DNA of 32,000 bases from positions 1 to 32,000 of the forward strand of contig AP031373.1 in the NCBI GenBank assembly GCA_042850255.1. The letters are read 5' to 3'. Made by a program: the position numbers and the translations under genes. This DNA comes from Nanobdellota archaeon (GTDB lineage: Archaea > Nanobdellota > Nanobdellia > Nanobdellales > Nanobdellaceae). Below, in pieces: positions 1,114-30,527 of this stretch (its first letter is position 1; every line of letters starts with the position of its first letter). A model generated the notes under the pieces. It was not told where the DNA came from. It was given only the letters and a program-made list of their open reading frames with translations, and did not search any database.

Positions 1114-1143
1114 AATCTTTATTTTTGTGTATACTTTATAAAA

Positions 1144-3095: not shown

Positions 3096-3130
3096 TATAC
3101 TTTTATTTTACTACCTCAATATTTAAATAT
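3096..3130. promoter_or_regulatory. Back-to-back divergent promoter region for the two FlaJ/TadC-like halves
   Basis: A 35-bp gap separates the divergent ATGs. TTTAAATA (3121-3128; the same on the opposite strand) lies about 25-32 nt upstream of the minus-strand ATG. CTTTTATTTTA (about 3100-3110) lies about 21-31 nt upstream of the plus-strand ATG. This fits leaderless archaeal promoters, but AT-richness makes TATA calls weak. Confidence 0.3.
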
Positions 3131-3979: not shown

Positions 3980-3982
3980 TTA

Positions 3983-5727: not shown

Positions 5728-8700
5728 ATGAACTTGTTCGGTAAAGATAAGAAATATTTAATAGAGATACTAATAATATTGTTTATATTTTTATTTACAT
5801 TTAGTACCAAAGGTTTGTTAATGAATGCCTTAGGTAACTATGATTTAGTAGGACCAGATGCTTATCTATTTTTTACATACTTCGAATCATTGGTATATAA
5901 TCATATAGTACCATATGTAACATATCATCTAGATTATCCATTACCATTTATATTTGATAACAAAGATTTGGTGTCATACTTTGCTTATCTATCATATTTA
6001 ATAATTACTTTTATGATAGATCATTTCTCATCAGGTTTCTTTGGATTCTTATCCCTTTTAGGAATACATCCAGCAGCTACTATAATTACTTGGCTATCTG
6101 CAGATTTTACAAACGCATTAACACCAGCAATAGCAGGAATAGTATTTTATTTCTTGGCAAAAGATATATTTAAAGATAAATATTTAGCATTATTTTCTGC
6201 AATAATATTTGCCATAAATCCTTTCTTGACATCTAGATTGGTATTATTTGATACAGAACTTGGGGCAGTCATATTTGTAGTACTATCTTTCTACTTAATA
6301 ATAAAATATATAGATGCAAAGCCAGAAAATAATAATTACAAAAGATTATCATTAATCTTATATTCATTAATTGCATTAATTATCTTCTATAAAACATTTT
6401 TGCTTCCAAATTATGATACATATTTAACAATAGAATTATTTATATTCTTCTTTTTACTTTTATTTTTATATCCAGTATTCAAAGGAACAAGAGAATATTA
6501 TTTAACATTATTAGTATTTACAACCACTTTAGCTAGAAAAGGATGGGGTGGATGGATAATTATACCTATGATATTTGGACTATTTTTATTAATAAGATTC
6601 TTTTATAATAGAGATTACAAAGAAGCATATTTCTACTTACCATATATGGGATTTACTGGAATATTAGAAAATGACTTAAGTTATCATCTATTTTTAGCAG
6701 ATCATAATATATTGTTTGAATTATCTCTAGGTATACTATATTTATATGATTTAATAAAGAATACAAAGATATTTGAAAAACTAAATAGTTTAAGTATAGG
6801 AAAAATAATAAAAGATAATGAATTATCTAAGAAAATATTATTATTTTTAATAATAGTACTAATAGGCTCTCCAATAATTATTGAAAAGGTTATATCTAAT
6901 TTCTTAATAAATCCATTTACTGCTAGTAGGATGGGATCTACAATTGCAGAATTCCAACCCACTCCAGCATCTTATTACTTTAGTTTATTTGGTTCTGTTG
7001 GAGTATTATTTACTTATTTAGGATTGTCTTATTTAATATTCAATAAAGATAAACCAAAAAAGTATCTATTTTCCCAATATATTTTTATATTTCTACTTTC
7101 TGGATCAGAAATAGTATTTGGATCTTCAATAGCTTTAATAATAATATATTTGTTAATATATAGTATAGCAATATTTTCTATTAGTAAAGGAGAAAAGAAA
7201 TACGCAATACAATCTGTCTTTGAAGTATTAACATTATCTGTTGCTATGTACTTTATTGTATTCTCAGATATAGTAATAAATGGTAATTATATTAGTATCG
7301 CAGCATCTTGGATGATATTCTTTATATTAATATTACCATATATAATATTAATTAATAGAAATATGAATGATAAAGAAATCTTTTCTCTTTCTTTAAGTTT
7401 CTTAACTATAATAGTAGGAAAATATATATTTGAATTAGTATATTATGCAGGATTTGCATTACCTTTATTATATAGTTATGGAATACAAACATTAGAAATA
7501 TTTAAAGATTATTATGAGAAAATAAAAAATACTGTAAAAGAATATTTAAATTTAATATTGCTAGTAATATCTTCCATATCTTCAATTTCCTTAATATTAT
7601 ACACAACATCTTTATATAAATCTTTTGGTTTATCCACTCCAGGATTAGTATTAATTTTCTTTGCTTTACCATTATTCTTCCTAATTTATTATATAATAAA
7701 CGAATATATATTAGAAAAAGAGACTAATAATTTAAATATATTAAAATATGGAATAATATTATTATCTCTATTTGGTGTATTTACAATATATAATACAAAT
7801 ATATATGGAGCTCCAGGATATATATTAAATTACTTTATTCCATTATATACTCAAGGAACTCCAAATTATGAAATACAAGCATTTACATGGATAAATCAAA
7901 ATACTCCTCCAAATGCTATAATAAATTCATGGTGGGATTATGGATATTATATATATTCTATAGGAAATAGAACTGCATGGATAAATGGAGCAAATTCATA
8001 TCCATATTGGAATCATTTAATGGGAAGATACGGATTATCTGCAGATAATATAACAAAAACATTACAATTATTCTACGTACATGCAGATTATAATTATCAA
8101 ACATTTAAAACATTAGAGTTATTTAATGAAAATTCTGTATTTTACGATTATTTATATAAAAATTTAGGATTTACTAAAGAACAAGTTGAAGAAATAGAAA
8201 AATTGAAGGAACAATTAGGATATAATAATTGGATAAAATTATTATATTCATTTAATGGCTCTCCAGAATCAATAGAAGAATTTAATCTATCACAACAAGA
8301 TATACAACTATTAGAAAAATTATATAATATGAATTATCTAAAACCTGCATACTTATATATAGATCCAACAGATGTTGGAAAATCATTTGCTTTCCAATTC
8401 TTAGGATCTAATGAAAGTTTTAATAAAGAATCTTGGGTATCTCAATTTTATTCCGGATCAACACAAAGTCCAGGAATTCAAATTCCTACAGTATATTATA
8501 ATGGATATTATATATTTGCACAAAATAATACATTATTTTACTTTGGTGAAGAACCATTAGACCAAAATCTAAATATAAATGGTACTGAAATAGAAAGATG
8601 TATATATGTACAAGATTTAGGAATAATAAACCAAAACTCTTGTGGTTTAATTATTGGAGCATCTTTAGTATTTAATCAATCTATTGTAAGCCAAAGCGGA

Positions 8701-9222
8701 ATATATGAAACATTAAATGTAAATAATATAAATCCAAATAATTTAGTCAGAGCATATGTATATATATTAGATCCATTAACAAATCAAGAATATGCATTAA
8801 CATTGAAATATGTAGATTTAGATGGAGAACTAGTAACATTTAATAATGCAACATATGGAGGACTATTATATGTAACGCCAGTAGTATCATTATTACAACA
8901 AAATAATCCAGTAGGAGAATTCTTATATGCATATTTTATTTCACAAAAGGCAACAAAATATGATTGGGTACAGTTATATTTCTTAGATAATAGTTATAAT
9001 GGAACATTCCAATTAGTATATTATACAAATGAACAATATGGATTACCTCCAATAATTTATGAAGATATTGCACCAGCAAAAGTATGGAAAATAAACTTCC
9101 CAGAAAACTTTACAGTACCTGATTATTTATATTGTTTATACTTAGCAACTAATTTACAACAGATAAATGAATGTGCAGAGATATATCACTTTAAACCTTA
9201 TACAAATTACTACAATGTATGA
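5728..9222 (+). CDS. aglB: Dolichyl-phosphooligosaccharide-protein glycosyltransferase AglB (STT3 family oligosaccharyltransferase), unusually large at 1164 aa
   Basis: The catalytic WWDYGYYI (WWDYG) motif is at about aa 735 (nt about 7931-7945). An acidic GPDAYLFF motif lies in the first external loop region. There is a very long polytopic N-terminal region and a soluble C-terminal domain of about 430 aa. Confidence 0.9.
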   Translation: MNLFGKDKKYLIEILIILFIFLFTFSTKGLLMNALGNYDLVGPDAYLFFTYFESLVYNHIVPYVTYHLDYPLPFIFDNKDLVSYFAYLSYLIITFMIDHFSSGFFGFLSLLGIHPAATIITWLSADFTNALTPAIAGIVFYFLAKDIFKDKYLALFSAIIFAINPFLTSRLVLFDTELGAVIFVVLSFYLIIKYIDAKPENNNYKRLSLILYSLIALIIFYKTFLLPNYDTYLTIELFIFFFLLLFLYPVFKGTREYYLTLLVFTTTLARKGWGGWIIIPMIFGLFLLIRFFYNRDYKEAYFYLPYMGFTGILENDLSYHLFLADHNILFELSLGILYLYDLIKNTKIFEKLNSLSIGKIIKDNELSKKILLFLIIVLIGSPIIIEKVISNFLINPFTASRMGSTIAEFQPTPASYYFSLFGSVGVLFTYLGLSYLIFNKDKPKKYLFSQYIFIFLLSGSEIVFGSSIALIIIYLLIYSIAIFSISKGEKKYAIQSVFEVLTLSVAMYFIVFSDIVINGNYISIAASWMIFFILILPYIILINRNMNDKEIFSLSLSFLTIIVGKYIFELVYYAGFALPLLYSYGIQTLEIFKDYYEKIKNTVKEYLNLILLVISSISSISLILYTTSLYKSFGLSTPGLVLIFFALPLFFLIYYIINEYILEKETNNLNILKYGIILLSLFGVFTIYNTNIYGAPGYILNYFIPLYTQGTPNYEIQAFTWINQNTPPNAIINSWWDYGYYIYSIGNRTAWINGANSYPYWNHLMGRYGLSADNITKTLQLFYVHADYNYQTFKTLELFNENSVFYDYLYKNLGFTKEQVEEIEKLKEQLGYNNWIKLLYSFNGSPESIEEFNLSQQDIQLLEKLYNMNYLKPAYLYIDPTDVGKSFAFQFLGSNESFNKESWVSQFYSGSTQSPGIQIPTVYYNGYYIFAQNNTLFYFGEEPLDQNLNINGTEIERCIYVQDLGIINQNSCGLIIGASLVFNQSIVSQSGIYETLNVNNINPNNLVRAYVYILDPLTNQEYALTLKYVDLDGELVTFNNATYGGLLYVTPVVSLLQQNNPVGEFLYAYFISQKATKYDWVQLYFLDNSYNGTFQLVYYTNEQYGLPPIIYEDIAPAKVWKINFPENFTVPDYLYCLYLATNLQQINECAEIYHFKPYTNYYNV

Positions 9223-10222
9223 AGATTATATAATTGCTTTATTGCCACCGATTATTTCTTTTTTAATAACATATTTTCTAGTAAAAAAATGGATACCAAT
9301 AGCACATAAATATGAATATGTAGGAAAAGATATGAACAAATATGAAAAACCAAAAGTTGCAGAAATAGGTGGTTTATATTCTATAATTGGAATAATATTT
9401 GGTATTTTAATATATATAGGATTAAAAGTATATATTTTTCATACTACAGAAGATCTTGTGCAAGTATTTGCTATATTAACTACACTATCCTTAGTTACAA
9501 TATTAGGATTATTTGATGATATACTTGGATGGAAAGAAGGATTAAAGCCTTGGGAGAAACCTTTACTAACATTAATATTAGCATTACCATTAATGATAAT
9601 ATCTGCAGGAGTCCCATATTTAAATTTTCCATTTATAGGCACAATTTACTTTGGGATCTTATATCCATTAATAATTGTTCCAATAATTATAATGGGTACT
9701 TCAAATGGTTTTAATATGCTAGCAGGATATAATGGATTGGAAGCTTCAATGGGAATATTATTAATTGGTGCTTCAGGATTAGAATTATATCTATTAGGCC
9801 AATATTATTTAGCAGAAATAGCATTAATTTCTATATTTTCTATTTTTGCATTTTTAATATTTAATTGGTATCCTGCAAAAGTTTTTCCGGGAAATTCATT
9901 TACATATGGAATAGGAACTTTATTTGGTACATTAGTAATATTGGGAAATATTGAACAATTTGGACTGATAATATTTTTATTATATATACTGGAATTATTA
10001 TTATTTGTAAGAGGATTATTAAATCATGTGTACAAAGAGAATTTTGGAATACCAAATGAGAAAAATGAATTAAAAGAACCTTATAATAAAATATATAGTG
10101 TAACTCACTTATCTATAAAATTAAACAGAAAGTTATTTAAAAAGGCGACAGAAAAGAGTGTTGTTTTAACTATATTGTTCTTCCAAATAATATTAACAAT
10201 AATAGCATTTATGTATGGTTAA
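9215..10222 (+). CDS. UDP-GlcNAc:dolichyl-phosphate GlcNAc-1-phosphate transferase-like (glycosyltransferase family 4, AglH/MraY-WecA type)
   Basis: It is a polytopic membrane protein with LGLFDDILGWK and TSNGFNMLAGYNGLEAS motifs (DD...; N.xN.laG.NGLe of GT4 phosphotransferases). I chose the ATG at 9215 (MYEDYIIALLPP...), which overlaps the aglB stop by 8 nt. The ORF-track start at 9167 lies inside aglB. Confidence 0.78.
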   Translation: MYEDYIIALLPPIISFLITYFLVKKWIPIAHKYEYVGKDMNKYEKPKVAEIGGLYSIIGIIFGILIYIGLKVYIFHTTEDLVQVFAILTTLSLVTILGLFDDILGWKEGLKPWEKPLLTLILALPLMIISAGVPYLNFPFIGTIYFGILYPLIIVPIIIMGTSNGFNMLAGYNGLEASMGILLIGASGLELYLLGQYYLAEIALISIFSIFAFLIFNWYPAKVFPGNSFTYGIGTLFGTLVILGNIEQFGLIIFLLYILELLLFVRGLLNHVYKENFGIPNEKNELKEPYNKIYSVTHLSIKLNRKLFKKATEKSVVLTILFFQIILTIIAFMYG

Positions 10223-11993
10223 AGTTATTTTAATATACTTTAATAAAAATGAAGAAAAATTATTATATAATTTATCTATATTAAATAGTTTTTGTAAAAA
10301 AAATAATTATGAATTAATATGTATAACTAAAAAAAGTTTAAGAGAATATGCTATAAAATTAAAAAACAAGTTTAATAATGTAAAATTTTACTTAATAAAT
10401 AATAAAAAAGATATTAGAAAATTAAAATTTAACGATACAACAATATTAATATATAATAATACAAATATTAACTTAAAAGAAGTAAAAAAAGGAATAGAAG
10501 ATTTAGAAGATAATAAAATAATAGTATTTAAAAATAAAATATATAAAATTAATATAATAAATCCGTATATAGTAATAGGAAGAAACATAGATATATATGA
10601 AGATTTTATTTTAACATATTTATCAAATAATAGAAAATATATAGAAAGTAAATATAATATAAACATTAATTTTTATATATTATTTACCAATTTATTAATA
10701 TTTATAAAAAAATCTATTGATTTATTTAATAAATTATTAAATATAAAATATATTAGGGATTATATAAATGAGAAAATAGGTTTAATATCTTATAAAGTAA
10801 TTACTTTTTTCTTAGTAATTATATTAGCAAGAATATTAACTCCAGAATTTTATGGAAGTTATGTTACTATATACAATTTTATTTTAATTTTATCTACCTT
10901 GATAGGTTCTTCAAATATTATATTGCAAAAAGTTTTATCAGAAAATATAAATAATATAGAAAATCAAAAAAAATATTTAAAATTAGATATTTATACAAAA
11001 ATACTTTTTTCATTAATAGCTATAATTATTATATCTTCAATTATTCCTTTCTTATTGAAAAGTATATTTTATTCTTATAATATTTTTATAATTTATATAA
11101 CATTTTTAACATCTATTTTATTAGCATTTGATGGCCTAGGATTTTCAATATTTTATTCATATTTAAAAATAAAGGAAGCAAGAAATTTATATATACTAGA
11201 AGCAATTTTTAAATTTATATTTGTAGTTTCTTTATCATTAGTATTAAAATCTTCTGGATTTATTTTTGGATTGTTATTAGCTTTTTTATCTATGGATATA
11301 GTAGAATTATATTTAATATTAAGACAATATCCAGAATTATTTGGATTTATTAAAGAAAAAATAAACAAGGATATATTTAAAAATTATCTTAGTTTAATAT
11401 TAAAAATAAGTTTGCCTCCATTATTGTTTAATCTATATTCTTCCATAGATATACAAATACTAAGAATATTTACATCTTTTCAAGATGTAGGATTATTTTA
11501 TAATGCAATGATAATAGTAGGAACAATATCTACAGTATTTTCAGTTTCTGGTATAACGCTACCAAGAATATTAAGATGGGAAAAAGAAAAAATAAAAGAA
11601 AGATTAAGCAAAATAATTGGATTACAATTATTGATTAATTTAATATTATATGGTTTGTTAATATTAATTGCTCCATATTTAATATTAATATTTTTTGGAC
11701 CTTCATATTTATTATCTGCAGAATTATTAAAATATTTAGGGATAATATTAATTATTCAATCATTTAATATATTTCCATTAATATTATATAAAAAAGGATT
11801 AGAAAAATATTATACAATATATTCTATAACTTCTTCTATTTTATCAATAATCTTAGATTTAATATTAATTCCTAGATTTAAATTAGAAGGAGCAGTCGCA
11901 TCTGCAATATTGGGAAATTTATTTAATGTTTTAATAGGATATATAATTTATGAAAAAGAATTTGATAATATCTATTCCAGATCTCTTTCTTGA
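10215..11993 (+). CDS. Wzx/RfbX-type (MOP superfamily) oligosaccharide flippase with an unrecognised N-terminal cytoplasmic extension of about 185 aa
   Basis: From about aa 185 it reads KVITFFLVIILARILTPEFYGSYV..., followed by about 12 TM segments, typical of polysaccharide biosynthesis/flippase proteins. The N-terminal 185 aa are soluble, Lys/Asn-rich and unassigned. It overlaps the upstream gene by 8 nt. Confidence 0.65.
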   Translation: MVKVILIYFNKNEEKLLYNLSILNSFCKKNNYELICITKKSLREYAIKLKNKFNNVKFYLINNKKDIRKLKFNDTTILIYNNTNINLKEVKKGIEDLEDNKIIVFKNKIYKINIINPYIVIGRNIDIYEDFILTYLSNNRKYIESKYNININFYILFTNLLIFIKKSIDLFNKLLNIKYIRDYINEKIGLISYKVITFFLVIILARILTPEFYGSYVTIYNFILILSTLIGSSNIILQKVLSENINNIENQKKYLKLDIYTKILFSLIAIIIISSIIPFLLKSIFYSYNIFIIYITFLTSILLAFDGLGFSIFYSYLKIKEARNLYILEAIFKFIFVVSLSLVLKSSGFIFGLLLAFLSMDIVELYLILRQYPELFGFIKEKINKDIFKNYLSLILKISLPPLLFNLYSSIDIQILRIFTSFQDVGLFYNAMIIVGTISTVFSVSGITLPRILRWEKEKIKERLSKIIGLQLLINLILYGLLILIAPYLILIFFGPSYLLSAELLKYLGIILIIQSFNIFPLILYKKGLEKYYTIYSITSSILSIILDLILIPRFKLEGAVASAILGNLFNVLIGYIIYEKEFDNIYSRSLS

Positions 11994-14838: not shown

Positions 14839-15309
14839 TTATAAATATATTTTATTTACTTCATAATAAACAATATCTCTTTCTATATCAATTATTCCTA
14901 ATAAAATGGTATTAATATTTTTTTCTTCCATAATTTTTAATATTTCAATGAAATCTAGAAATTCATTTTCAAATATCGGATATATATAATATTTAATTTT
15001 TTCTTTTTTCTCATCTTCATATAAAATTATTAAATTTTTATCTATTCCAACATAATATCCTTTATTTCTTAAGTCTTCAAATATATAATATTTTTTCATA
15101 TCTATTTTTTCTTTATATTTTCTAATAAAATCTATAAAATTATTTATATTTTCTAATTTTATCCAACCTTTTTTTAATCCATATAAAATTTCTTCAGGTT
15201 CTAATAATATATAATTATCTTCTAATTTACCTAATCTACCAATTTTATCATAATATTCTTTATTTACATAGAATTTATTATTTATTTCTCTAACTATAAC
15301 TTTTTCCAT
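14839..15309 (-). CDS. tRNA splicing endonuclease, structural (beta-type) subunit
   Basis: The ORF is 156 aa. YILLEPEEILYGLKKGWIKLE and YYIFEDLRNKGYYVG match the EndA N-domain and linker. The following GxKFGxDFxVY / His / Lys catalytic segment is absent. It overlaps the upstream catalytic subunit gene by 16 nt. Confidence 0.6.
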   Translation of the reverse strand: MEKVIVREINNKFYVNKEYYDKIGRLGKLEDNYILLEPEEILYGLKKGWIKLENINNFIDFIRKYKEKIDMKKYYIFEDLRNKGYYVGIDKNLIILYEDEKKEKIKYYIYPIFENEFLDFIEILKIMEEKNINTILLGIIDIERDIVYYEVNKIYL

Positions 15310-15713
15310 TTTATTTCCAAGAATATATTATCCTTTATACAATATAATATATTTTTTCTAGTACTATGAGCAACTCTATTTTTTGCTAAGAAATCATACA
15401 CATCTATTTTTTCTCCATAATTTATTGGTATTGCAATCCATTTAGAGTGTTCTCCTTTTTTTTCATATATTCTAAATACTCCTCCAAATTTTAACCCTGT
15501 TCCAACAATATATCCCTTTTTCCTAAAATATTTATAAAAATAATAGTATAATTTTATCCTTTCATTATTTAAAAAATAACTTATATCTAATTTTTCTCCT
15601 TTATCATTATAAACTTCTATTTCTCCTTTTTCTAATAAATATAAAGCATCATAAAAATAAATTATTTTATCTTGATCTAAAAATATCCCATCTTTATATA
15701 ATATTCTTCTCAT
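15294..15713 (-). CDS. endA: tRNA splicing endonuclease, catalytic (alpha-type) subunit
   Basis: FRKKGYIVGTGLKFGGVFRIYEKKGEHSKWIAIPI and RVAHSTRKNILYC carry the Tyr/His/Lys catalytic-triad context of EndA. I set the start at MRRILYKDG (ATG 15711-15713). The ORF-track N-terminus (MVERRTCNPQVRGSSPRGG) is a read-through of the tRNA-Thr gene. Confidence 0.75.
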   Translation of the reverse strand: MRRILYKDGIFLDQDKIIYFYDALYLLEKGEIEVYNDKGEKLDISYFLNNERIKLYYYFYKYFRKKGYIVGTGLKFGGVFRIYEKKGEHSKWIAIPINYGEKIDVYDFLAKNRVAHSTRKNILYCIKDNIFLEIKWKKL

Positions 15714-15742
15714 AAATTGATAATATAAGACTTTTTTATAAA

Positions 15743-15815
15743 TGCCGCCGCGGGGACTTGAACCCCGGACCTGCGGATTACAAGTCCGCCGCTCTACCAA
15801 CTGAGCTACGGCGGC
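15743..15815 (-). tRNA. tRNA-Thr (anticodon UGU), contiguous, no intron, no encoded CCA
   Basis: The reverse complement is GCCGCCGTAGCTCAGTTGGTAGAGCGGCGGACTTGTAATCCGCAGGTCCGGGGTTCAAGTCCCCGCGGCGGCA. It has acceptor GCCGCCG/CGGCGGC, anticodon stem GCGGA/TCCGC with loop CTTGTAA, and T-arm CGGGG-TTCAAGT-CCCCG. Confidence 0.93.
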
Positions 15816-15850
15816 ATAAAATAAAATTTCAAAAAATAAAATTTAAAACT

Positions 15851-16702
15851 TTAGCTTCCTCCTAGAGAAACAACTGATTGAGCTAAAACAGTTGGTATAG
15901 CCCCTCCATATTGCGCAGTATAACCATTTACTGGAGTTATTTGTAAGTTATAATTTTCATTTGTAACCAATGGTTTTGGTAAATATAGCATTATTTCATA
16001 TTCTTCTCCTGTAGTTAAATATACACTTTCTTGATTTACTGCCAATCCTATCATTGCATATGGATCACTTATTCCTACTTCATTCATATCCTGTAATATT
16101 TGGAATAATTGATTTAATGATATTGGAAATCCTATTATTGAAGAATTTAATCCTATAGTACATGAAGATATTGTACCATTTGTATATGTAAAGTTAACAT
16201 ATACATATTGAGTTGTTACATTATTCAATGTTTGACATATCTGCGTATTATCTATTGTTACATTTTGTACATTTACTTGATTATCAAACATAAATCCTGT
16301 TATAATTATATTTCCTCCTTGTAATACTCCATATATTGCTGTAGGTTCATATGATGATGGAGAATATGAAAATACATCTCCATTACTATCTGTTAATAAT
16401 ATATCCACATCTTCAAGATTTATTGGACCAGACCCTGGCATTAGAGATACTACTGGGGAGAATACTGTTATTTCCTGTAAATAATTATTTAAACTTTGTG
16501 TAGATGGATCATATTGATATCCAAATACTTGTGTTATTTGCATTCCTGTTGTAATTCTTTGTTGTGCTTGTGCACCAGTTTGTAATGCTTTAGATTGCAA
16601 AGCACTAGTTGTATATATTATTACTCCAGCTGCTACTGCTGCTGTTACTATTATTGCTATCAGTATTATTAATGTTGATAAACCAAACTGAGCCCTTACC
16701 AT
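15851..16702 (-). CDS. flaB: Archaellin (archaeal flagellin FlaB/ArlB family)
   Basis: The N-terminus is MVRAQ-FGLSTLIILIAIIVTAAVAAGVIIYTTSALQSKALQTGAQAQQRITTGMQITQVFG. This is the archaellin class III signal peptide plus the conserved AAVAAGV.I.T...LQ.KA..TG core. I prefer the ATG at 16700-16702 because the track start at 16717 is a GTG. A TTTATAA-like element lies about 30 nt upstream. Confidence 0.85.
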   Translation of the reverse strand: MVRAQFGLSTLIILIAIIVTAAVAAGVIIYTTSALQSKALQTGAQAQQRITTGMQITQVFGYQYDPSTQSLNNYLQEITVFSPVVSLMPGSGPINLEDVDILLTDSNGDVFSYSPSSYEPTAIYGVLQGGNIIITGFMFDNQVNVQNVTIDNTQICQTLNNVTTQYVYVNFTYTNGTISSCTIGLNSSIIGFPISLNQLFQILQDMNEVGISDPYAMIGLAVNQESVYLTTGEEYEIMLYLPKPLVTNENYNLQITPVNGYTAQYGGAIPTVLAQSVVSLGGS

Positions 16703-16749
16703 ACTATAATTTAGCACGTTCGGTAATTATAAATTTTACCAGCTGGTAG

Positions 16750-17859
16750 TTATTTATTTAATAATGCTATTGTTTCCATATGATATGTATGAGGGAATTG
16801 ATCTATTAAAATAATTTTATCTAATTTATATCCACCTTTATTTATTAAAATATCTATATCTCTTTTTTGAGTTTCTGGATAACATGAAACATAAACTATT
16901 CTTTTTGCATTAGATTCTATTATCTTTTTCATTGCTTTTTTATGTATTCCTGGTCTTGGAGGATCAATTATTATTTTATCTGCAGATATTTTTTCCATAT
17001 CTTCTACATTTTTTAATAAAAATTTTACTCCTTTTACATTATTTATTCCTTTATTTAATTTAAACATCTCTTCATTTTCTTTATTATTATCTATTGCATA
17101 TACATAATTAGAATATTTTACAACTTCTATTGAATAAAATCCAGATCCTGAATATAAATCATATATTATTTCATTTTCCTTTGGTTCTATAAAATCTCCA
17201 ACATATTTTAATAATATTTCTGCAGTATAACTATTTGGTTGATAGAAACTATTTGTAGATATATAATAGTAGTTATCTAATGCTTTTTCTTTAATATATT
17301 TATCTCCGGCTAAATTATAATTTATGTCTCCATAAGATACATCTGCAATTTTATCATTTATTGTCCAATAAAATGAATTAGCATAATTTTTTATTTCATC
17401 ATAAAATTCTAAAAATAGATTTTTATAGTATTCCAAATTTTCTGTTTTATATGTAATTATATTAACCATTCTTTCATTTGTAAATTTTCCTTCTCTAATT
17501 ACAATATATCTTACAAATCCTTTATGATTTACAGTATCCCACGGATCTAGTTTTTTATTTATTATAAATTCTCTAAATTTATTTCTAATAATATTTGATT
17601 CTTCTGATTGTAATAAACATTCATCAATATTTACATATGCATACCACTTTCCATACTCCTTTAATCCGACTTCATAATTCTTTCCTACTGCATAATCCAT
17701 TCTATTTCTATAATAAAATATTTTTGGAGATTTAATTATTTCGTCGGGTTCTCTTTTAAATATTTCAATAAATTTATTTACTTTAAATTCTATTTGTTTA
17801 TCATAAGATAAATTTTGTATTTGACATCCTCCACATTTGCCAAAGTATTTACATAACAT
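16750..17859 (-). CDS. RNA (uracil-5-)-methyltransferase, TrmA/RlmD (RumA) family, SAM-dependent with a Fe-S cysteine cluster
   Basis: The N-terminus MLCKYFGKCGGCQIQNLSYDKQ, together with a later DECLL Cys, gives the RumA-type 4-Cys pattern. FYQPN, DLYSGSGFYS (SAM motif I), IIDPPRPG and VYVSCYPET (catalytic Cys) are also present. There is no TRAM domain. Confidence 0.82.
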   Translation of the reverse strand: MLCKYFGKCGGCQIQNLSYDKQIEFKVNKFIEIFKREPDEIIKSPKIFYYRNRMDYAVGKNYEVGLKEYGKWYAYVNIDECLLQSEESNIIRNKFREFIINKKLDPWDTVNHKGFVRYIVIREGKFTNERMVNIITYKTENLEYYKNLFLEFYDEIKNYANSFYWTINDKIADVSYGDINYNLAGDKYIKEKALDNYYYISTNSFYQPNSYTAEILLKYVGDFIEPKENEIIYDLYSGSGFYSIEVVKYSNYVYAIDNNKENEEMFKLNKGINNVKGVKFLLKNVEDMEKISADKIIIDPPRPGIHKKAMKKIIESNAKRIVYVSCYPETQKRDIDILINKGGYKLDKIILIDQFPHTYHMETIALLNK

Positions 17860-18098: not shown

Positions 18099-21000
18099 TT
18101 ATGAATAATATAGCGCATATACACCAAATCCTGATGGACTAAATGTTGTGTTAGTAGATATTACATTACCAACTCCACTAATTATTTTTTCTACTATATA
18201 ATTACCTGAAGGAATATCAATAAATGTTATATTTGCAATAGGAGATCCTATTAATAATATTCCCGAAGCAAAATTATATTGTATACTATTATTGGTTATT
18301 GTACTAGAAAATCCTGATGCATAATTAATAAATGCATTACCATTATATAATATATCAATACTCCCTGTGGATACTGTTAAATTATCTATATATCCTTGTC
18401 CATTTATTGATACTCCCAATTGTGAATTATATGAAGATATATTTGTAGCATTTCCTACAATATTTAATCCAAATACTCCTCCATATGTTATTACATTACT
18501 TATATTATTTGGTGCAGATTCGTATAATCCAAATACTGATCCTACATTTATTGTATCATTATTTACATTATTTCCTGATGATCCTAGATCTATGCCAAAT
18601 ATATTTGCAGTTATATAATTATTTAATATATTATTGTTATATCCATTATTGATTTTTATTCCAAATATATTTGCTATTACATTATTATTTTCTACATAAT
18701 TATTTATCGCATTTCCATCGAAATCTACTCCAAATATATTTGCATTAATTGTATCGTTATTTATTATCACATTTTCAGGATTTAAATCATATATTCCCCA
18801 TACACTTGCAGTAATATATGAATTTTCTATTGTAGAATTTTGGAATGTACCTGTTCCATATATTGCTCCAATATTTCCATTTATATTTGAATTATATATA
18901 TTTAATACTGATGGATTTTCTACTTGTATTGCAAATAATCCAGAATTTATATTTGAATTGTATATATTCAATGTTCCATTATCTAATCTTACTGCAAATA
19001 GATTAGTTTGTACATTTATATTATTTAATGTTACATTTGAAGATTCTACATCTATTACTGGTAATCCTGGATTTGCAGGTTCAAATAGTACATTACCTGT
19101 TCCTAATAATGTAATGTTTTTACCTTGTGGATTTATTAATAAATTGACTAAATATACTCCTGGAGTAAATACTACAACTGGAGTATTATTATTTATTGCT
19201 CCTTGGATTACTCCATTTATTTGTGTTGAAGATTCTGTAGGGGTTACATTATATACATCTACAGCATTTGATTGATAGTATATTACTTGTGGACTAGTTA
19301 TATATGTTAATCCATAGTTATTATTTGCATATATTCTATACCATAATTGATAATATTTTCCATTAAATGTTGCATATTGCTGTAATATTCCATCAAAAAA
19401 TACATCACTACATTGTGTAGAGTTTGAAACAGTTATCCATTGATTATTAGATTGATTTAAGAATTGTATTGCACAATAATCTGTTCCTAATGTATTATCA
19501 TATACATTTCCATATACTTGTAATAACCAATAATCTAACACTGTTCCATTTGATGGAGTTGGAGAAATATAGGATACATTAAATTCTGGAGGAGGTAATT
19601 GATAAATATATATTCCAGTACTATTTGTTAATCCAGTAGGAGATTGTATTGTTAATTCTATTGAAATATTTCCTCCATTTGGTATTATACTATATAGTCC
19701 TGGTAATCCGTTTGATGAATTATTATACCTTAGATATACAGTATTCGTTCCTGGATTTACATTTATTGTATATGTATTTCCATTTATTGTTACATTTACT
19801 GTTGGATAATTTGTATAAAATGTTATATTTAATGCATAATAATTACTTATTGTATTATTTGCTGGAGAAGAAATATATATTATTGGATTTGGATATACAT
19901 TTAATGTGAATATTGTTGAATTCTCTAATCCAGTTACAGTGTCTTTTCCTATAAATGTGATATTATATTGTTGATAGCTATTTACATTTGGTGCAGTAAT
20001 TGAAAATATATAACTTTCCCCTGAAGAAATATTTACTTCTGTTGGAGAACAAATTACTCCTGAAGGAGCTAGACATTCTATTGTTATATTATCTCCCAGA
20101 TTATCTGTTCCATTTACTTGTACATATATTGTTTGTCCTGAATTAACACTTGCAGATGTTTGATTTAATGTTAATGTTAAAGTTTCAACTACCACTGTTA
20201 CAGATGTAGTATTATAAGTACTTGTAACAGTATCTGTTGCTGTAATATTTACTAAATATGTTCCTGGAGATGTGTTAGATGATGCAGTTATAGTTAATGT
20301 AGAACTACTTCCAGATGATATTATATTAGAAGAAAATTTACAAGACCAACTAGAAGGTACACTACATGACAAATTTAAATTATCTTCATAGTTATCCGAT
20401 GCTGTTACTGTTATTGAAGTAGAACCACCTGGTGTTATTCCAGTATAAGGAGGATTAGTTGATACAGTTATTACTTCTTGTGGAACTGTTACTGTTATTG
20501 AAGTAGTATTATAATTACCTGTATCTACATCTTTTGCAGTAATATTTACTATATAATTGCCAGGAGTAACAGTTGTTGATGCTGATATATTTAAAGTAGT
20601 AGATCCTTCCGATGGTATTGGATTAGGAGATATTGTACATGTAAAACCTGTTGGACATGATACAGATATGTTTAAACCATATCCATAATTATCTGAAGCA
20701 GTAATTGTAGTCGTATTATACTTACCAGGTATAACTTGCACATTTGAAGAAGATACAGAAATGGTTTCTGGTGGGATATTTACAGTAATAATTGTATAGT
20801 TTGTTGCATTATTTGGAGCTGTACCAGTTACATTTACTAAATATGTACCTGGAGCAATATTATATGTAGAAGTTATTGTTAATGTTGCTGTTCCATTTGG
20901 AGTTACTGTAGATGGTGATAATGAACAACTTAAATCTGGATTATTTGTTGTACAAGATAAATTAACTGGTAAAGGATTTGCATTTGTTATTTCATTTACA

Positions 21001-21758
21001 TATATTGTTGTAGTATTTGATTGTCCTGGAATTTGAGTAATTGTTGAAGGTGAAGAAGACATGTTAAATAAAAATATTGGAAATATAAATACTGTTGAAG
21101 CTCCATACATATTTGTTGGTGTTCTCTTATTTACTCTTGCATTAACAGTTATAGCAGCATCAACTGTATAAGTACCTGGAGATAAGTCTTGACAATATGC
21201 AGCATAGACTGATGTTGCAATTCCAGAACTTGTTAAAAATATTTGAGAACATCCTGCAGGTAATGTTACACTAGAAATATATGCACCATTTCCTGTACTT
21301 CCAACAGAAATTAATATATAAACTGAAGAAGGTTCTGTCAATGTAAATGATATTGGCCAACCATAGTTAACTTGAGCATTAACACCATTAGAATAGCTAC
21401 TTGTATTTGTAACATACGTATATGAAGTAAAGTTATTTACCGTAATACCCCCAACTGTATAAAATCCAGCATTAGTAGTAATAGAACAAGAATTTGTACT
21501 AGAATAACCAACTACTGCATAATTTGAACTATTAGCTAAAACTGTAAAACTAGAAGTTAATGTAGCTCCATTTGCACTAGCTTCACATAGATATAAACTA
21601 CCTGAAGGAAGAGTTATAGATGTTGAAGCAGATGTATTACTATATCCTACTGTATATGCTCCTTCTTGAGAATGTATTGGCTTCAACAATACTAAAGTAA
21701 ACAATATTATAAATATTACAAGTATTCTTTTTATAATAGTTTTATAATTAAATTCCAT
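18099..21758 (-). CDS. Large secreted surface protein: Sec signal peptide, N-terminal beta-rich domain, 4 tandem Ig-like repeats, middle domains and a C-terminal right-handed parallel beta-helix; candidate S-layer protein or adhesin
   Basis: The ORF is 1219 aa. The signal peptide is MEFNYKTIIKRILVIFIILFTLVLLKPIHS|QEG. There are four repeats of about 97 aa with a paired-Cys pattern (...LS/VSC...xSC...PGxYxVNxT...). The PbH1-like repeats are (N)N.I..N.FGI... I counted about 52 N-x-S/T sequons by hand. There is no C-terminal TM anchor. Confidence 0.7.
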   Translation of the reverse strand: MEFNYKTIIKRILVIFIILFTLVLLKPIHSQEGAYTVGYSNTSASTSITLPSGSLYLCEASANGATLTSSFTVLANSSNYAVVGYSSTNSCSITTNAGFYTVGGITVNNFTSYTYVTNTSSYSNGVNAQVNYGWPISFTLTEPSSVYILISVGSTGNGAYISSVTLPAGCSQIFLTSSGIATSVYAAYCQDLSPGTYTVDAAITVNARVNKRTPTNMYGASTVFIFPIFLFNMSSSPSTITQIPGQSNTTTIYVNEITNANPLPVNLSCTTNNPDLSCSLSPSTVTPNGTATLTITSTYNIAPGTYLVNVTGTAPNNATNYTIITVNIPPETISVSSSNVQVIPGKYNTTTITASDNYGYGLNISVSCPTGFTCTISPNPIPSEGSTTLNISASTTVTPGNYIVNITAKDVDTGNYNTTSITVTVPQEVITVSTNPPYTGITPGGSTSITVTASDNYEDNLNLSCSVPSSWSCKFSSNIISSGSSSTLTITASSNTSPGTYLVNITATDTVTSTYNTTSVTVVVETLTLTLNQTSASVNSGQTIYVQVNGTDNLGDNITIECLAPSGVICSPTEVNISSGESYIFSITAPNVNSYQQYNITFIGKDTVTGLENSTIFTLNVYPNPIIYISSPANNTISNYYALNITFYTNYPTVNVTINGNTYTINVNPGTNTVYLRYNNSSNGLPGLYSIIPNGGNISIELTIQSPTGLTNSTGIYIYQLPPPEFNVSYISPTPSNGTVLDYWLLQVYGNVYDNTLGTDYCAIQFLNQSNNQWITVSNSTQCSDVFFDGILQQYATFNGKYYQLWYRIYANNNYGLTYITSPQVIYYQSNAVDVYNVTPTESSTQINGVIQGAINNNTPVVVFTPGVYLVNLLINPQGKNITLLGTGNVLFEPANPGLPVIDVESSNVTLNNINVQTNLFAVRLDNGTLNIYNSNINSGLFAIQVENPSVLNIYNSNINGNIGAIYGTGTFQNSTIENSYITASVWGIYDLNPENVIINNDTINANIFGVDFDGNAINNYVENNNVIANIFGIKINNGYNNNILNNYITANIFGIDLGSSGNNVNNDTINVGSVFGLYESAPNNISNVITYGGVFGLNIVGNATNISSYNSQLGVSINGQGYIDNLTVSTGSIDILYNGNAFINYASGFSSTITNNSIQYNFASGILLIGSPIANITFIDIPSGNYIVEKIISGVGNVISTNTTFSPSGFGVYALYYS
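18309..19226 (-). repeat. Coding region for parallel beta-helix (PbH1-type) repeats within the surface protein gene
   Basis: About aa 845-1150 contain iterated ~20-24-aa units such as NNDTINANIFGVDFDGNAINNYVENNNVIANIFGIKINNGYNNNILNNYITANIFGIDLG. Coordinates are derived from my manual residue counting. Confidence 0.6.
19884..21056 (-). repeat. Four diverged tandem repeats of about 290 bp (about 97 aa) encoding Ig-like domains within the surface protein gene
   Basis: The repeat units start near aa 235, 331, 429 and 526. They share the pattern xPGxxxTTTITASDNYxxxLNxSxSCPxxxxCxxSPxxxxxxGSxTLxIxAxxxxxPGxYxVNITAxDxxTxxYNTTSxTVxV. Confidence 0.65.
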
Positions 21759-21817: not shown

Positions 21818-21834
21818 TTGATTATCAATATTGA
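21818..21834. promoter_or_regulatory. Composite palindromic motif TTGATTATCAATATTGA upstream of the surface protein gene (candidate operator)
   Basis: The motif lies about 60-76 nt upstream of the ATG at 21758 on the minus strand. It contains the perfect 10-bp palindrome TCAATATTGA and matches a site at 23115-23131 at 16 of 17 positions. Confidence 0.4.
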
Positions 21835-21858: not shown

Positions 21859-22476
21859 CTATTGTAATGATTGGTAACCTAAAGAACTACAAGATGCATA
21901 TCCTGTTGCAGGATTTACAGCACAGTTCATTAAATCTAAATATTGTGTTGGACTTATTATTAATCTAACACCCATTGTTTCATGAGTAGTTGACCAATTT
22001 ATTGTTTCATTTAAACAATTACCTCCTAATATTGTTACATTTACTTCAGCAACAGTATGAGCAGGTATTGCTTGTCCATATGATAATGTTTGATTTGTAT
22101 TTACATCATATACTGATGCAGATACAATACTAGCTAATGAAGGATTAGTTGCTAAATTTGCAAACAATGTTGGTATTGAACAGAATACATCTCCGTTTTT
22201 ATCAGTAAAGTCTAATGTCCATCCAACTAATGGTATACTTGTTGATCCTAAATTATATAAAGTAAATGATACTGTTGCTACAGTTCCAAATTCTGAATAT
22301 TCTACATCATGAATTGCAAATTGTGGTACTTGAGATTGTTGTTGTATTAATGAAACTCTTGCTAAAGCAGCTCCAGATGTTTTTAAGTAAATATTAAGTA
22401 TTACATAACTTGCTATTGTTGCAATTGCAACTAGAAATATAAAAAGAAAAAGAGTTTGAAAAGCTTGCCCTTTCAT
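21859..22476 (-). CDS. Archaellin-like / class III signal peptide protein (divergent; could be a minor archaellin or a FlaF/FlaG-like protein)
   Basis: The N-terminus is MKGQA-FQTLFLFIFLVAIATIASYVILNIYLKTSGAALARVS, with a prepilin-type KG|Q motif and a hydrophobic helix. The ORF is 205 aa and starts 1 nt downstream of the preceding archaellin gene. Confidence 0.55.
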   Translation of the reverse strand: MKGQAFQTLFLFIFLVAIATIASYVILNIYLKTSGAALARVSLIQQQSQVPQFAIHDVEYSEFGTVATVSFTLYNLGSTSIPLVGWTLDFTDKNGDVFCSIPTLFANLATNPSLASIVSASVYDVNTNQTLSYGQAIPAHTVAEVNVTILGGNCLNETINWSTTHETMGVRLIISPTQYLDLMNCAVNPATGYASCSSLGYQSLQ

Positions 22477-22477
22477 T

Positions 22478-23068
22478 TTATCCGTATAGTATTACTGTTG
22501 GATATATCATTGCAGCCGGTGTTACTCCAGATAGATCATATGGTTGTCCATTTGGTGGTATTATTGAAATTTCCCATGTTTGTGATGTTCCTAATGTTAC
22601 ATTTGCATATACTAATAATGCAGCTAAATCATTTGGTCCTAATACTCCATTATATAATAGTCCAGAATTATCTACTGAGTCATGTTCATCTAAATAGTAA
22701 TATCCTGTATAACCTGTTACTAACGATGAATTTGCTACAGCACCTCCATATGCGAATACTTCTCTTCCAGCTGGTGTATATAATAGCAATGTTGTTTCAT
22801 TTAACAATATTGGCTGTGATCCTGGTGCTAATCTTGTATATACTAAGAATTCTTGTACTGTTTGTGTTGATGTATTTACATTCAACCCTTCTACTCTAAC
22901 TATTTCTACAGTTGTACCTGATGTTTGTACAGTTTGTTGTGCCGCTGCTGCTGCATGACCTTGTGCACTAGTTGTTGCACCTATTATTACAAAAGCTGCT
23001 ATTGCTGCTGTCAATGCTGCTGCTATAAATAAGACCATCGAAGAAAAACCTGTACCTTGTCCCTTCAT
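22478..23068 (-). CDS. Archaellin-type protein (short, 196 aa)
   Basis: The N-terminus is MKGQG-TGFSSMVLFIAAALTAAIAAFVIIGATTSAQGHAAAAAQQTVQTSGTTVEIVRVEG, which follows the archaellin pattern (hydrophobic helix, then T.G..V.....G). A TTTAAAT-like element lies about 25-35 nt upstream. Confidence 0.68.
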   Translation of the reverse strand: MKGQGTGFSSMVLFIAAALTAAIAAFVIIGATTSAQGHAAAAAQQTVQTSGTTVEIVRVEGLNVNTSTQTVQEFLVYTRLAPGSQPILLNETTLLLYTPAGREVFAYGGAVANSSLVTGYTGYYYLDEHDSVDNSGLLYNGVLGPNDLAALLVYANVTLGTSQTWEISIIPPNGQPYDLSGVTPAAMIYPTVILYG

Positions 23069-23114: not shown

Positions 23115-23131
23115 TTGATAATCAATATTGA
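23115..23131. promoter_or_regulatory. Composite palindromic motif TTGATAATCAATATTGA upstream of the archaellin gene pair (candidate operator)
   Basis: The motif lies about 47-63 nt upstream of the ATG at 23068 on the minus strand, immediately 3' of tRNA-Glu. It matches the site at 21818-21834 at 16 of 17 positions and contains the same perfect palindrome TCAATATTGA. Confidence 0.4.
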
Positions 23132-23206
23132 TGCCCCCGCCGGGATTTGAACCCGGGTCACAGGGACGAAAACCCTGTATCCTAGACCGGACTAGACGAC
23201 GGGGGC
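23132..23206 (-). tRNA. tRNA-Glu (anticodon UUC), contiguous, no intron, no encoded CCA
   Basis: The reverse complement is GCCCCCGTCGTCTAGTCCGGTCTAGGATACAGGGTTTTCGTCCCTGTGACCCGGGTTCAAATCCCGGCGGGGGCA. It has acceptor GCCCCCG/CGGGGGC, anticodon stem CAGGG/CCCTG with loop TTTTCGT, T-arm CCGGG-TTCAAAT-CCCGG and discriminator A. Confidence 0.92.
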
Positions 23207-28763: not shown

Positions 28764-30527
28764 TCATAATAAATAATATCTTAATTTTGTATCTAATGAC
28801 TTTAACAATTTTTCATCATCTACTATAACTATAGATAATCCTTTAGTAATACCTCCAGCATATAATCTAGATGTTCTTCCAGATGCTTGTATATAAGATT
28901 TTAAATCAACAATTTTAATATATATATCATTATTTACAATTTCTGTAGAAACATCAGGATTTTCTTTTATTTTTTCTATTATCTCTTTATCTTTTATATA
29001 TTCGGATATCTTATTATATAACCATAAAATATCTTCAGCTATTTTTTTATTATATCCTTCCAAATTTACATTATTTCCTTTAATATATTCATTTATTAAT
29101 CTTAAAGCCTCTGAAGATAATTTTTTTAGATTTTTTCTAATATTATCAACTTTCCTATTAAGATTAATTTTTTCTAATTCTGGTAAAGTAGAAGAAATAA
29201 TAGAAGATAAAATTAAAATATTGTTTATATTTTTATCTAATTTGGTCAAATTTATTTTTATTTTTGGAATCCCAACAAATATAGCATATTTTATTCTTTC
29301 AGGAATATCTAATCCCCTAACTAATATACCATAAGGATCAGATATCCCTATTAATACATTGATCTTTCCATCACTAAAATTTTTAATTATTTCATCTACA
29401 TTTTTAACTTCTGAAGATACATATTCTATATTTACATTATTTTTCTTTAAGAATTCGTATAATTCTTTCATATATTCTACCCCTTTATCTTTAGGTACAA
29501 ATATTAATATTCCATCATTTAGTATTTTTATTAATTTTAAAACTTCATTTTCAATACTTTCAGTTGGATAATAATAAATATCTGTTATATTTCTTATTTT
29601 AGAACTTCCGGTACCTACTGTAAAATTTGCCAATTCTTTATATAATAATACTCTTTTCCCTCTTAAACTTCCAGTAGCAGATGATAATACTATAATACCA
29701 ACATTCTTTTTCTTAATTTCCAAAAATTTTTTGTATATATCACTATTAAAATCTAATCTTCCAGATAATTTTAAATCTATTATTCTTTTAGCTAAACTAA
29801 TTTCTTCTTCATCATATCCTATTAAATTAAAAATTCTTTCTATATTTTTAGATCCTTTAAAGAATGAATCTACATCATCTATAAATACTATATCGAATTT
29901 TTTATCTTTTATTAGATCAAAATTTTTTGATAAAAATTGATTAGAAATAATTAATATTTTATAATTCCCTTCTTTTATTTTTTCTTTTAATTCTTTTTTG
30001 TTATTCCCATAATAATATGCTATATCCAGATTTAAATTTAATTTTGATAAAAATTCATTAAATTTATCTAAAGCTTGTTTTACCAATAATCTTGTAGGTA
30101 AAACAATTAATACCCTTTTATTATATTTCCAGGAGAAATATATAGATGCTACAGTTATGAATGTTGATTTTCCTATTCCAGTTGGAGCAATCATAGAAAA
30201 ACTAGAATTTTTATATAATCTTTTAAACCACATTAATTGTATCTTCCAAGGATAATTATTAATTAAACTATTAAAGAATTCTTTAAATTGCTTTGTTTCT
30301 TTATATAATTTATATATCTCCTCAAAATTTTTTAATCTATTTTTTTCTTTTAATTTTTTGTATAAAATTTCCATAAATTCATTTTCATCTTTTATATTAA
30401 TTAGATCTAATATTTCATTCTCATTTAAATCTTCTTCACATGGTAATGCATTTGATAATCTATATGATGATATTAAATTACCACAATTGAAGCATAAATT
30501 TTTTATATATAAAGGTATATAATCCAT
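28764..30527 (-). CDS. rgy: Reverse gyrase, N-terminal zinc-finger plus helicase-like module only (stand-alone split subunit; no topoisomerase IA domain)
   Basis: There is an N-terminal Cys motif (NLCFNCGN...PCEE). The SF2 helicase motifs are MIAPTGIGKSTF (I), FIDDVDSF (II), SSATG (III) and QASGRTSRLYAGGITKGLS (VI). The ORF terminates about 35 aa after motif VI. The next downstream gene is tmcA, not a topoisomerase domain. Confidence 0.85.
   Translation of the reverse strand: MDYIPLYIKNLCFNCGNLISSYRLSNALPCEEDLNENEILDLINIKDENEFMEILYKKLKEKNRLKNFEEIYKLYKETKQFKEFFNSLINNYPWKIQLMWFKRLYKNSSFSMIAPTGIGKSTFITVASIYFSWKYNKRVLIVLPTRLLVKQALDKFNEFLSKLNLNLDIAYYYGNNKKELKEKIKEGNYKILIISNQFLSKNFDLIKDKKFDIVFIDDVDSFFKGSKNIERIFNLIGYDEEEISLAKRIIDLKLSGRLDFNSDIYKKFLEIKKKNVGIIVLSSATGSLRGKRVLLYKELANFTVGTGSSKIRNITDIYYYPTESIENEVLKLIKILNDGILIFVPKDKGVEYMKELYEFLKKNNVNIEYVSSEVKNVDEIIKNFSDGKINVLIGISDPYGILVRGLDIPERIKYAIFVGIPKIKINLTKLDKNINNILILSSIISSTLPELEKINLNRKVDNIRKNLKKLSSEALRLINEYIKGNNVNLEGYNKKIAEDILWLYNKISEYIKDKEIIEKIKENPDVSTEIVNNDIYIKIVDLKSYIQASGRTSRLYAGGITKGLSIVIVDDEKLLKSLDTKLRYYLL

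Follow-up and report, generated by a model that had tools for sequence, protein, structure and literature searches.

How ultra-small archaea of the DPANN/Nanobdellota recognize and hold one host species is an open question, and the locus described here raises it in concrete form: what is the role of a very large, heavily glycosylatable secreted protein that is encoded among archaellin genes? The window analyzed is a stretch of 32,000 nucleotides (contig AP031373.1, positions 1 to 32,000; assembly GCA_042850255.1; G+C content, about 24%) from the Nanobdellota archaeon YN1 ('Ca. Nanofervidus parviconus'). This archaeon (G+C content, 23.4%) lives as an ectosymbiont on Sulfurisphaera ohwakuensis and comes from a hot spring of pH 2-3 (YN1 paper). 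The gene under study, an open reading frame (ORF) at 18099..21758 of the minus strand, starts with ATG and encodes 1,219 amino acids; the initial annotation, which was made from the sequence of the window, had proposed it to encode a candidate S-layer protein or host-attachment adhesin. The explanation that we favor, at an evenly balanced level of confidence, is that the product is a fibrillar adhesin that would be exported by Sec, glycosylated by AglB, and coexpressed with archaella in a host-seeking stage, with a variable head that would bind the host and a beta-helix that would act as a scaffold or docking module.

The 1,219-amino-acid protein is the syntenic ortholog of MJ1_0451 of Nanobdella aerobiophila MJ1. 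At the MJ1 locus (L004), the gene order matches that of YN1 on both sides, and the encoded protein (P0065, 1,132 amino acids) is 64% identical to the YN1 protein over 934 amino acids. Indeed, the order Hel-TmcA-SufS-SufB-h79-tRNA-Arl196-Arl205-gene-(RlmD)-Arl288 is found in YN1, in MJ1, and at three further loci (L001, L015, and L016). MJ1_0451 lies between the genes MJ1_0449 and MJ1_0453, which are the ArlB genes of MJ1 (Kato et al., bioRxiv 10.1101/2023.10.27.564410), and it has the same domain order as the YN1 protein and a similar number of N-glycosylation sequons (47 versus 52), but it carries three rather than four immunoglobulin (Ig)-like repeats, and the N-terminal heads of the two proteins are only 38% identical. 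In previous work, the extracellular proteins MJ1_0451, MJ1_0701, and MJ1_0776 were listed as 'pectin lyase-like' from prediction only, with lengths of 908 to 1,320 amino acids, 36 to 52 sequons, a beta-helix, and 1 to 8 Ig folds; degradation of the glycosylated wall of the host was the role proposed for them (Kato et al., 10.1101/2023.10.27.564410). The YN1 protein fits this description (signal peptide, 1,219 amino acids, 52 sequons, four Ig repeats, and beta-helix) and, because the MJ1_0451 group was already listed there, it is a new member of a described family. The statement of the initial annotation that no characterized ortholog is recognizable therefore holds in that no member has been studied experimentally, but the family itself had already been described from predictions.

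Relatives were found by a genome scan in N. aerobiophila MJ1, Nanopusillus acidilobi, Nanobsidianus stetteri, and several metagenome-assembled genomes (MAGs), and a full HMMER search added a Nanoclepta relative; MJ1 and N. acidilobi escaped word-index searches and were recovered only by these two approaches. The MJ1_0451-type family is restricted to thermoacidophilic Nanobdellota (Nanobdella, YN1, Nanopusillus, Nanobsidianus, and Nanoclepta), with one copy detected in YN1 and three reported in MJ1. YN1_2360 (P0006) was considered as a second YN1 copy and was rejected (pairwise E value, 0.18). In the MAG of Nanopusillus sp. RSNP5 (L014, 7750-10493), two frameshifts break up a family member, which is left as three ORFs with no runs of N in the sequence and represents either a pseudogene or an assembly or sequencing error.

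Residues 1-30 (21669..21758, minus strand) are predicted to form a Sec-type signal peptide, as judged from the sole hydrophobic segment of the protein (residues 5-31) and from the alignment of orthologs. A basic n-region (K6/K10/R11) is followed by a hydrophobic core (12-25) and then by IHS|Q, and cleavage is predicted near IHS|QEG, at the position that corresponds to YSQ|VGA in the aligned orthologs. No C-terminal transmembrane segment, nor any other hydrophobic segment beyond the signal peptide, and no PGF-CTERM-like C terminus was found in the 1,219 amino acids, in agreement with the initial annotation, which had noted a signal peptide and no membrane anchor. The 14 cysteines are accounted for by 7 intradomain pairs, and K, R, D, and E together make up only 5.9% of the residues, a low charge that fits an extracellular protein of an acidophile. 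The number of sequons (N-x-S/T, where x is not P), which had been counted by hand as about 52, was exactly 52 by computation, of which 21 are kept in all aligned orthologs. This corresponds to 4.3 sequons per 100 amino acids, compared to about 2 in the archaellins and 0 to 1 in cytoplasmic neighbors. When the sequence was shuffled 1,000 times, 38 +/- 5 sequons were obtained, with a maximum of 54 (z of about 2.9 for the real count); hence, the high count arises mainly because N, S, and T make up 37.7% of the residues, and the extra enrichment is modest. Together with the architecture, these features support the earlier reading of a secreted, heavily N-glycosylatable surface protein.

The domain order of the protein is signal peptide, novel beta-sandwich head, Ig-like stalk, two beta-sandwiches, PbH1 beta-helix, and conserved tail (all coordinates refer to the minus strand). 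The head (residues 32-231; 21066..21665), which had been left unassigned, is a novel all-beta domain in the AlphaFold2 model (predicted local distance difference test [pLDDT] score, about 85-93) with Cys pairs 58/91 and 170/189, and it matched no Pfam family or PDB sequence. The stalk (residues 232-622; 19893..21065) consists of four tandem Ig-like repeats of NEW3/CARDB-like type (232-330, 331-427, 428-524, and 525-622), which align with one another, carry a PGxY-VNIT signature, and conserve one Cys pair each; they were modeled as beta-sandwiches with a pLDDT of about 90. As a whole, the N-terminal model (residues 30-625, 13 sequences, mean pLDDT of 88.5) is entirely beta, with the N-domain of ~200 amino acids followed by four sandwiches. 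When it was compared to the PDB with Foldseek, tandem Ig-like strings were retrieved, including RTX-adhesin extender repeats, and these matches swamped the search to the extent that the fold of the N-domain was not separable there. A profile of the N-domain matched only two proteins, one from a Marsarchaeota bin. The latter (P0228, 275 amino acids), the only match of this profile beyond Nanobdellota, resembles the MJ1_0776-type head (…CGWFECSGVSLPSGC…) and may derive from a mis-binned contig or reflect a broader use of the N-domain.

The middle region (residues 623-830; 19269..19892) comprises two beta-rich domains, as seen from the AlphaFold2 model and from conservation. The C-terminal model (residues 623-1219, mean pLDDT of 68) is confident for a beta-sandwich at about 642-722 and for a parallel beta-helix at about 842-1122 (pLDDT of 75-92), while the second middle domain, modeled with low confidence, has conserved D754, D760, R808, and Cys 762/783. 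The right-handed parallel beta-helix (residues about 831-1130; 18369..19268) is built of PbH1-type rungs of ~22 amino acids, about 13 in number, with regular short strands, and was indicated by a subthreshold Pfam match, by profile searches, by AlphaFold2, and by Foldseek. Pfam PF13229 matched the YN1 sequence at 23.1 bits, below the cut-off of 25.9, and several orthologs have precomputed PF13229 matches. In a search of 1.84 billion representatives, the family profile found the whole C-terminal module (C-module) in only about nine clusters and, past those, reached NosD/Beta_helix proteins at 1e-9 to 1e-13. The whole protein had no match in NCBIfam, PHROGs, or PDB sequences, and no relatives of the C-module were found in IMG/VR viral contigs. 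The conserved C-terminal ~90 amino acids (18102..18368), with a fold pLDDT below 50, end in GFGxYxL[FY]YS; the extreme C terminus, TF.P.GFG.Y.L[FY]YS (residues about 1197-1219; window positions 18102-18170), is kept from YN1 to Nanoclepta and could be a docking or sorting element. Hence, the four repeats of ~97 amino acids with their Cys pairs, the two further beta-rich regions, of which the first is confidently modeled, and the PbH1-type helix that had been proposed from the letters of the window were all recovered by alignment, structure prediction with Foldseek, and hidden Markov model (HMM) searches, the last of which retrieved the NosD/Beta_helix-type relatives of the helix.

A first line of evidence on function comes from the rates at which these parts evolve. 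Between YN1 and MJ1_0451, identity is 38% in the N-domain and 48-69% in the Ig repeats and then rises to 72% in the middle region, 76% in the beta-helix, and 73% in the C-terminal tail; the flanking housekeeping and archaellin genes are 75-92% identical, with Arl196 at 92%. The number of Ig repeats per ortholog ranges from 1 to 4, a tandem-repeat stalk of varying number as looked for in a fibrillar adhesin, and the orthologs of 909, 1,008, 1,109, 1,209, and 1,219 amino acids (that of MJ1 has 1,132) differ by entire Ig repeats. Moreover, in paralogs, the same C-module is joined to different N-terminal modules (DUF2341). The last 601 amino acids of MJ1_0451 and MJ1_0776 are 97% identical, and the final approximately 480 are identical, whereas the heads share 26%; and about 180 amino acids of the MJ1_0776 head are identical to part of a 655-amino-acid protein with a pilin-like N terminus that is encoded 1.2 kb upstream. 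Because the same head recurs on this pilin-like protein, the head appears to be a displayed module, and the near-identical C-modules and the shared ~180-amino-acid stretch both suggest that gene conversion has recently taken place between loci that lie far apart in MJ1. The head is thus the fastest-evolving part (fast evolution had been named in the initial annotation as frequent among adhesins), and the C-terminal 600 amino acids evolve as slowly as the housekeeping neighbors and are nearly identical between paralogs. As far as we can tell, a head that evolves this fast (38%) on a base that is 97% identical between paralogs is a new observation. Sequons are also unevenly spread, with 2.0 per 100 amino acids in the head, the lowest density, and 5.6 in the stalk. 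Taken together, the rates, repeat numbers, head swaps, and sequon distribution are consistent with an exposed head that serves for recognition and can be swapped, borne by a glycosylated, adjustable stalk on a base that is conserved.

A second line of evidence is the neighborhood of the gene. As had been noted in the initial annotation and as was confirmed with the ORF list and Pfam, an archaellin pair lies upstream on the same strand (196 and 205 amino acids; 22478-23068 and 21859-22476, minus strand; Pfam Arch_flagellin, 1.1e-19 and 1.3e-5), and an RlmD-type methyltransferase gene (16750-17859, minus strand) separates the ORF from a downstream archaellin gene (288 amino acids; 15851..16717, minus strand; Arch_flagellin, 7.3e-22). 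The upstream archaellins have class III signal-peptide-like N termini (MKGQ...), and the neighboring genes are of MKGQ/MKSQ type; the ORF itself is no archaellin or type IV pilin, as it has no class III signal peptide and its Sec-like N terminus leads into a beta domain. The archaellin-flanked arrangement recurs in MJ1 and at L001, L015, and L016. In Nanopusillus and Nanobsidianus, the closest homolog instead follows two T2SSF (PilC/ArlJ-type) genes, a gene for a 229-amino-acid protein with a pilin-like N terminus (MKSQSWIEVLITLAVF...; 7.9% charged residues), and a tRNA gene, and in MJ1, MJ1_0776 is preceded by three pilin-like genes. The family therefore adjoins type-IV-filament genes in three separate contexts, which is, as far as we can tell, new. 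At the MJ1_0776 locus (L007, 1759-9806), pilin/archaellin-like ORFs of 159, 152, and 655 amino acids stand in a row upstream of the gene. In the YN1 window, positions 1144-5204 hold two divergent T2SSF genes (421 and 282 amino acids), a gene for a 229-amino-acid pilin-like protein, and one for a 219-amino-acid membrane-anchored protein, and this counterpart locus (319-5204) has no family gene, with only 30 bp at the insertion position.

The third line of evidence is regulatory. A palindrome common to the upstream regions of the ORF and of the archaellin pair had been reported in the initial annotation and was found both to be present and to be conserved in other species. The 17-nt motif TCAATATTGATWATCAA is common to two sites, one at 21818..21834 (minus strand; TCAATATTGATAATCAA), 60-76 nt upstream of the ATG of the ORF, and one at 23115..23131 (minus strand; TCAATATTGATTATCAA), 47-63 nt upstream of the archaellin pair, where it abuts tRNA-Glu. 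Its 11-nt core, TTGATWATCAA, has 3 matches in the window versus 0.12 expected. The core was also found upstream of the orthologous family gene at L004, L015, and L016 and upstream of the orthologous archaellin gene at L001 and, with one mismatch, at L004. In a total of about 260 kb, made up of the window and 16 loci, eight exact copies of the core were counted, in every case within an archaellin-context locus, and seven of these copies are intergenic and directly upstream of an archaellin or family gene; the other 11 loci (about 160 kb) have none. The gene thus has its own promoter region with the palindrome of the archaellin operon, and it is, as far as we can tell, a new observation that five genomes have this palindrome ahead of archaellin and family genes. 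From this distribution, the palindrome can be read as a conserved candidate operator that would place the family gene in the archaellin regulon. The third exact core in the window, TTGATTATCAA at 16277-16287, lies inside the downstream archaellin coding sequence (15851-16717) and could be a chance occurrence or an internal site. In both contexts, a tRNA gene is located directly upstream of the promoter; tRNA-Glu (23132-23206) abuts the archaellin-operon motif, and at L002/L005/L006/L010/L013 (about 7830-7930), the homolog is preceded by a tRNA, after which comes a related GATTATCA...TGATTA sequence. A scan for bacterial promoters and terminators was uninformative for this archaeon.

Published imaging describes free Nanobdella cells as motile and attached cells as mostly lacking archaella. 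It also describes sporadic thorn-like densities and a corrugated proximal segment on N. aerobiophila archaella, as well as a second, rough 15-nm appendage of unassigned identity. We considered whether the C-module might dock on an archaellum or type IV pilus; the thorn-like densities would then consist of the protein, or it would act as an adhesin at the tip or side of the filament. The three independent contexts with archaellin or pilin-like genes, the candidate operator common to the gene and the archaellin promoter, the identical head on the pilin-like protein and on MJ1_0776, the unexplained thorns, and the parallel conservation of Arl196 (92%) and the C-module (72-76%) between YN1 and MJ1 would all agree with such an accessory. 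The signal peptide, however, is of Sec type rather than class III, one paralog context (L009, L011, and L012) has no filament genes, and the thorns are described as sporadic. A filament accessory is thus quite unlikely in our estimation, and the same doubt applies to the archaellum or the 15-nm appendage as its dock and to its identity with the thorn-like decorations; if it were true, the swimming filament would become a means of capturing hosts, with a specificity that depends on swappable heads. The absence of an anchor is compatible with a released, nonadhesive glycoprotein of a matrix, biofilm, or protective coat that has no specific host ligand, and spider-web-like extracellular material has been reported for the related strain YN4. 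A fast-evolving, poorly glycosylated head on a conserved base and the swapping of heads argue for specific recognition and not for bulk matrix, and we rate the chance of a released glycoprotein as low. In favor of the S-layer proposal of the initial annotation, there is a superficial likeness to SlaA-type proteins, in that the protein is large, secreted, sequon dense, Ig rich, and anchorless. The proposal is unsupported because the putative S-layer proteins of YN1 are different genes: YN1_5000 and YN1_2560 were named as homologs of the top-expressed MJ1_0160 and of MJ1_0707 (YN1 paper), and the ORF, by ortholog assignment and published gene names, corresponds to MJ1_0451 and to neither of these. 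Furthermore, the top transcript of YN4 encodes another S-layer-like protein (YN4_391), and the copy number and stalk length of the family vary, with one MAG copy frameshifted, possibly by sequencing error. A lattice role in YN1 is accordingly highly improbable. There is likewise only a very slight chance that the protein is the repeating unit of the attachment-organelle cone, on which nothing bears except the copy-number behavior, which is not like that of an S-layer protein.

The remaining alternative is that the beta-helix is a depolymerase of pectin-lyase or tailspike type that cuts or trims host S-layer glycans at the contact site, with the stalk and head serving to target it. This role was proposed by Kato et al. 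(10.1101/2023.10.27.564410), and the beta-helix fold is common to GH87, GH110, GH49, AlgG, and phage tailspikes, to which Foldseek gave weak matches. In addition, coculture strips a terminal deoxyhexose (host of YN4) or pentose (host of Nanobdella) from host N-glycans, and this loss of sugars in two Nanobdellales systems means that some trimming activity exists. Enzymes of family GH28 have several catalytic Asp residues, and those of PL1/3/9 have a Ca-binding Asp and a catalytic Arg or Lys. In the helix of the YN1 family, position 1014 (D/E) is acidic in 22 of 22 homologs and, by the spacing in the sequence, stands in a ladder of charged residues that follows the FG[IV] motif of successive rungs, but beyond it, the most conserved residues are E893 (18 of 22), D1068 (16 of 22), and K1035 (15 of 22), and no Arg, Lys, or His is invariant. 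Among these 22 homologs, there was no conserved acidic pair or triad and no set of Arg/Lys plus Ca site; this lack of a conserved catalytic residue set in the helix is, as far as we can tell, a new observation. No HMM of a glycoside hydrolase (GH) or polysaccharide lyase (PL) family matched in Pfam and NCBIfam scans, the remote sequence relatives are of NosD/Beta_helix type, and the Foldseek matches were weak (best E value, 5.8e-4; template-modeling [TM] scores of 0.2-0.35), the top match being the nonenzymatic adhesin PfbA. The fold can be called 'pectin-lyase-like', but membership in a lyase or hydrolase family is not supported, and an enzymatic role appears unlikely.

Several known systems resemble parts of the YN1 protein, in each case with clear differences. 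PfbA of Streptococcus pneumoniae (PDB 4mr0), the best Foldseek match of the C-module, is an adhesive, noncatalytic right-handed beta-helix; the match is weak (E value, 5.8e-4; TM score, 0.33-0.42; 13% identity), homology is unsupported, and PfbA differs in being LPXTG anchored and in having neither an Ig stalk nor an N-terminal head. Bacterial fibrillar adhesins (RTX adhesin, PDB 6xi1; SiiE) resemble the YN1 protein in their tandem Ig-like stalk of variable repeat number and distinct terminal domain, but they are unrelated to it in repeat family, in secretion route, and in anchoring; the YN1 stalk, given its Cys pairs and sequons, would be stabilized by disulfides and N-glycans rather than by Ca2+. 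The likeness of the C-module to PfbA and of the stalk to RTX extender repeats was counted in favor of an adhesin. Phage tailspikes and tail fibers of the pectate-lyase superfamily also combine beta-sandwiches with a parallel beta-helix and pair a conserved attachment part with a swappable recognition part, and a Foldseek search of viral models gave weak tailspike-like matches of the C-module. Their polarity, however, is opposite, since in the YN1 family it is the helix that is conserved and the N terminus that varies, and the YN1 helix has no conserved catalytic residues and no PHROG match. Outside the lineage, the helix is closest in sequence to NosD/PF13229 proteins (profile E values of 1e-9 to 1e-13), but the match is limited to the helix; the middle, C-terminal, stalk, and head domains are specific to the lineage.

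In the fibrillar adhesin that we favor, Sec would export the 1,219-amino-acid protein and the nearby AglB pathway would glycosylate it, the conserved beta-helix and C-terminal base would hold it at the cell surface or on a filament, and the Ig stalk would project the sparsely glycosylated head, which would bind a ligand on the host surface. Expression with archaella in the free, host-seeking stage would then allow swimming cells to capture a host, and the beta-helix would serve for scaffolding, docking, or carbohydrate binding and not as a lyase or hydrolase. Several points weigh against this explanation. The adhesin role is a prediction for every member of the family, the head matched nothing in Pfam or PDB sequences and has no recognizable adhesive fold, and many enzymes that degrade glycans have the beta-helix fold as well. 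Retention at the surface is an assumption, since no anchor was found, and the polarity of a C-terminal base and an N-terminal head was deduced solely from evolutionary rates and domain swapping. Published glycoproteomics of YN4 names YN4_326, YN4_730, and ArlB as the main glycoproteins. As for the link to archaella, L001, with no more than 53 nt of intergenic sequence upstream of the family gene, has no motif there; the paralog context of L009, L011, and L012 has no filament genes nearby; and gene proximity is weaker evidence in a genome of 773 kb than in large genomes. The adhesin of the initial annotation is thus plausible and is strengthened by the anatomy of head, stalk, and base, but its function is still a predicted one.

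The remainder of the window supplies the glycosylation genes on which this explanation draws. A 1,164-amino-acid protein encoded at 5728-9222 (plus strand), with WWDYG at residue 735 and about 16 transmembrane segments, is a plausible AglB, although the Pfam STT3 core barely recognizes it (13 bits; E value, 0.12). It opens an N-glycosylation cluster (5728-11993, plus strand) that continues with a GT4 (AglH-like) gene and a Polysacc_synt flippase-like gene; an NTP-transferase gene is located at 319-1113. An AglB pathway near the ORF, as proposed in the initial annotation, is therefore plausible from these genes, but its distance is 6-12 kb instead of 9-16 kb. Rfam found only four tRNAs in the window, and neither the 240-nt gap after the ORF nor the corresponding gap of about 970 nt in MJ1 contains a convincing ORF. 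Elsewhere, a 587-amino-acid helicase (28764-30527, minus strand) has a reverse-gyrase zinc finger (zf_Rg) and no topoisomerase domain and resembles one half, that with the helicase, of a reverse gyrase encoded in two parts, as occurs in Nanoarchaeum equitans. Two adjacent tRNA-intron endonuclease paralogs of 156 and 168 amino acids (14839-15816, minus strand) suggest a heteromeric enzyme, and the true start of the second is probably further downstream because the ORF call (TTG at 15800) overlaps tRNA-Thr (15742-15816).

Were the protein only another predicted surface protein, the finding would be an ordinary one, as the family had already been flagged in N. aerobiophila. The MJ1_0451-type family is, however, one of the few concrete candidates for attachment in these ultra-small archaea, being lineage specific, surface directed, and heavily glycosylated, with a variable head on a conserved base and with repeated linkage to filament genes, and the palindrome that its genes share with archaellin genes offers a handle for the regulator of the motile, host-seeking stage.

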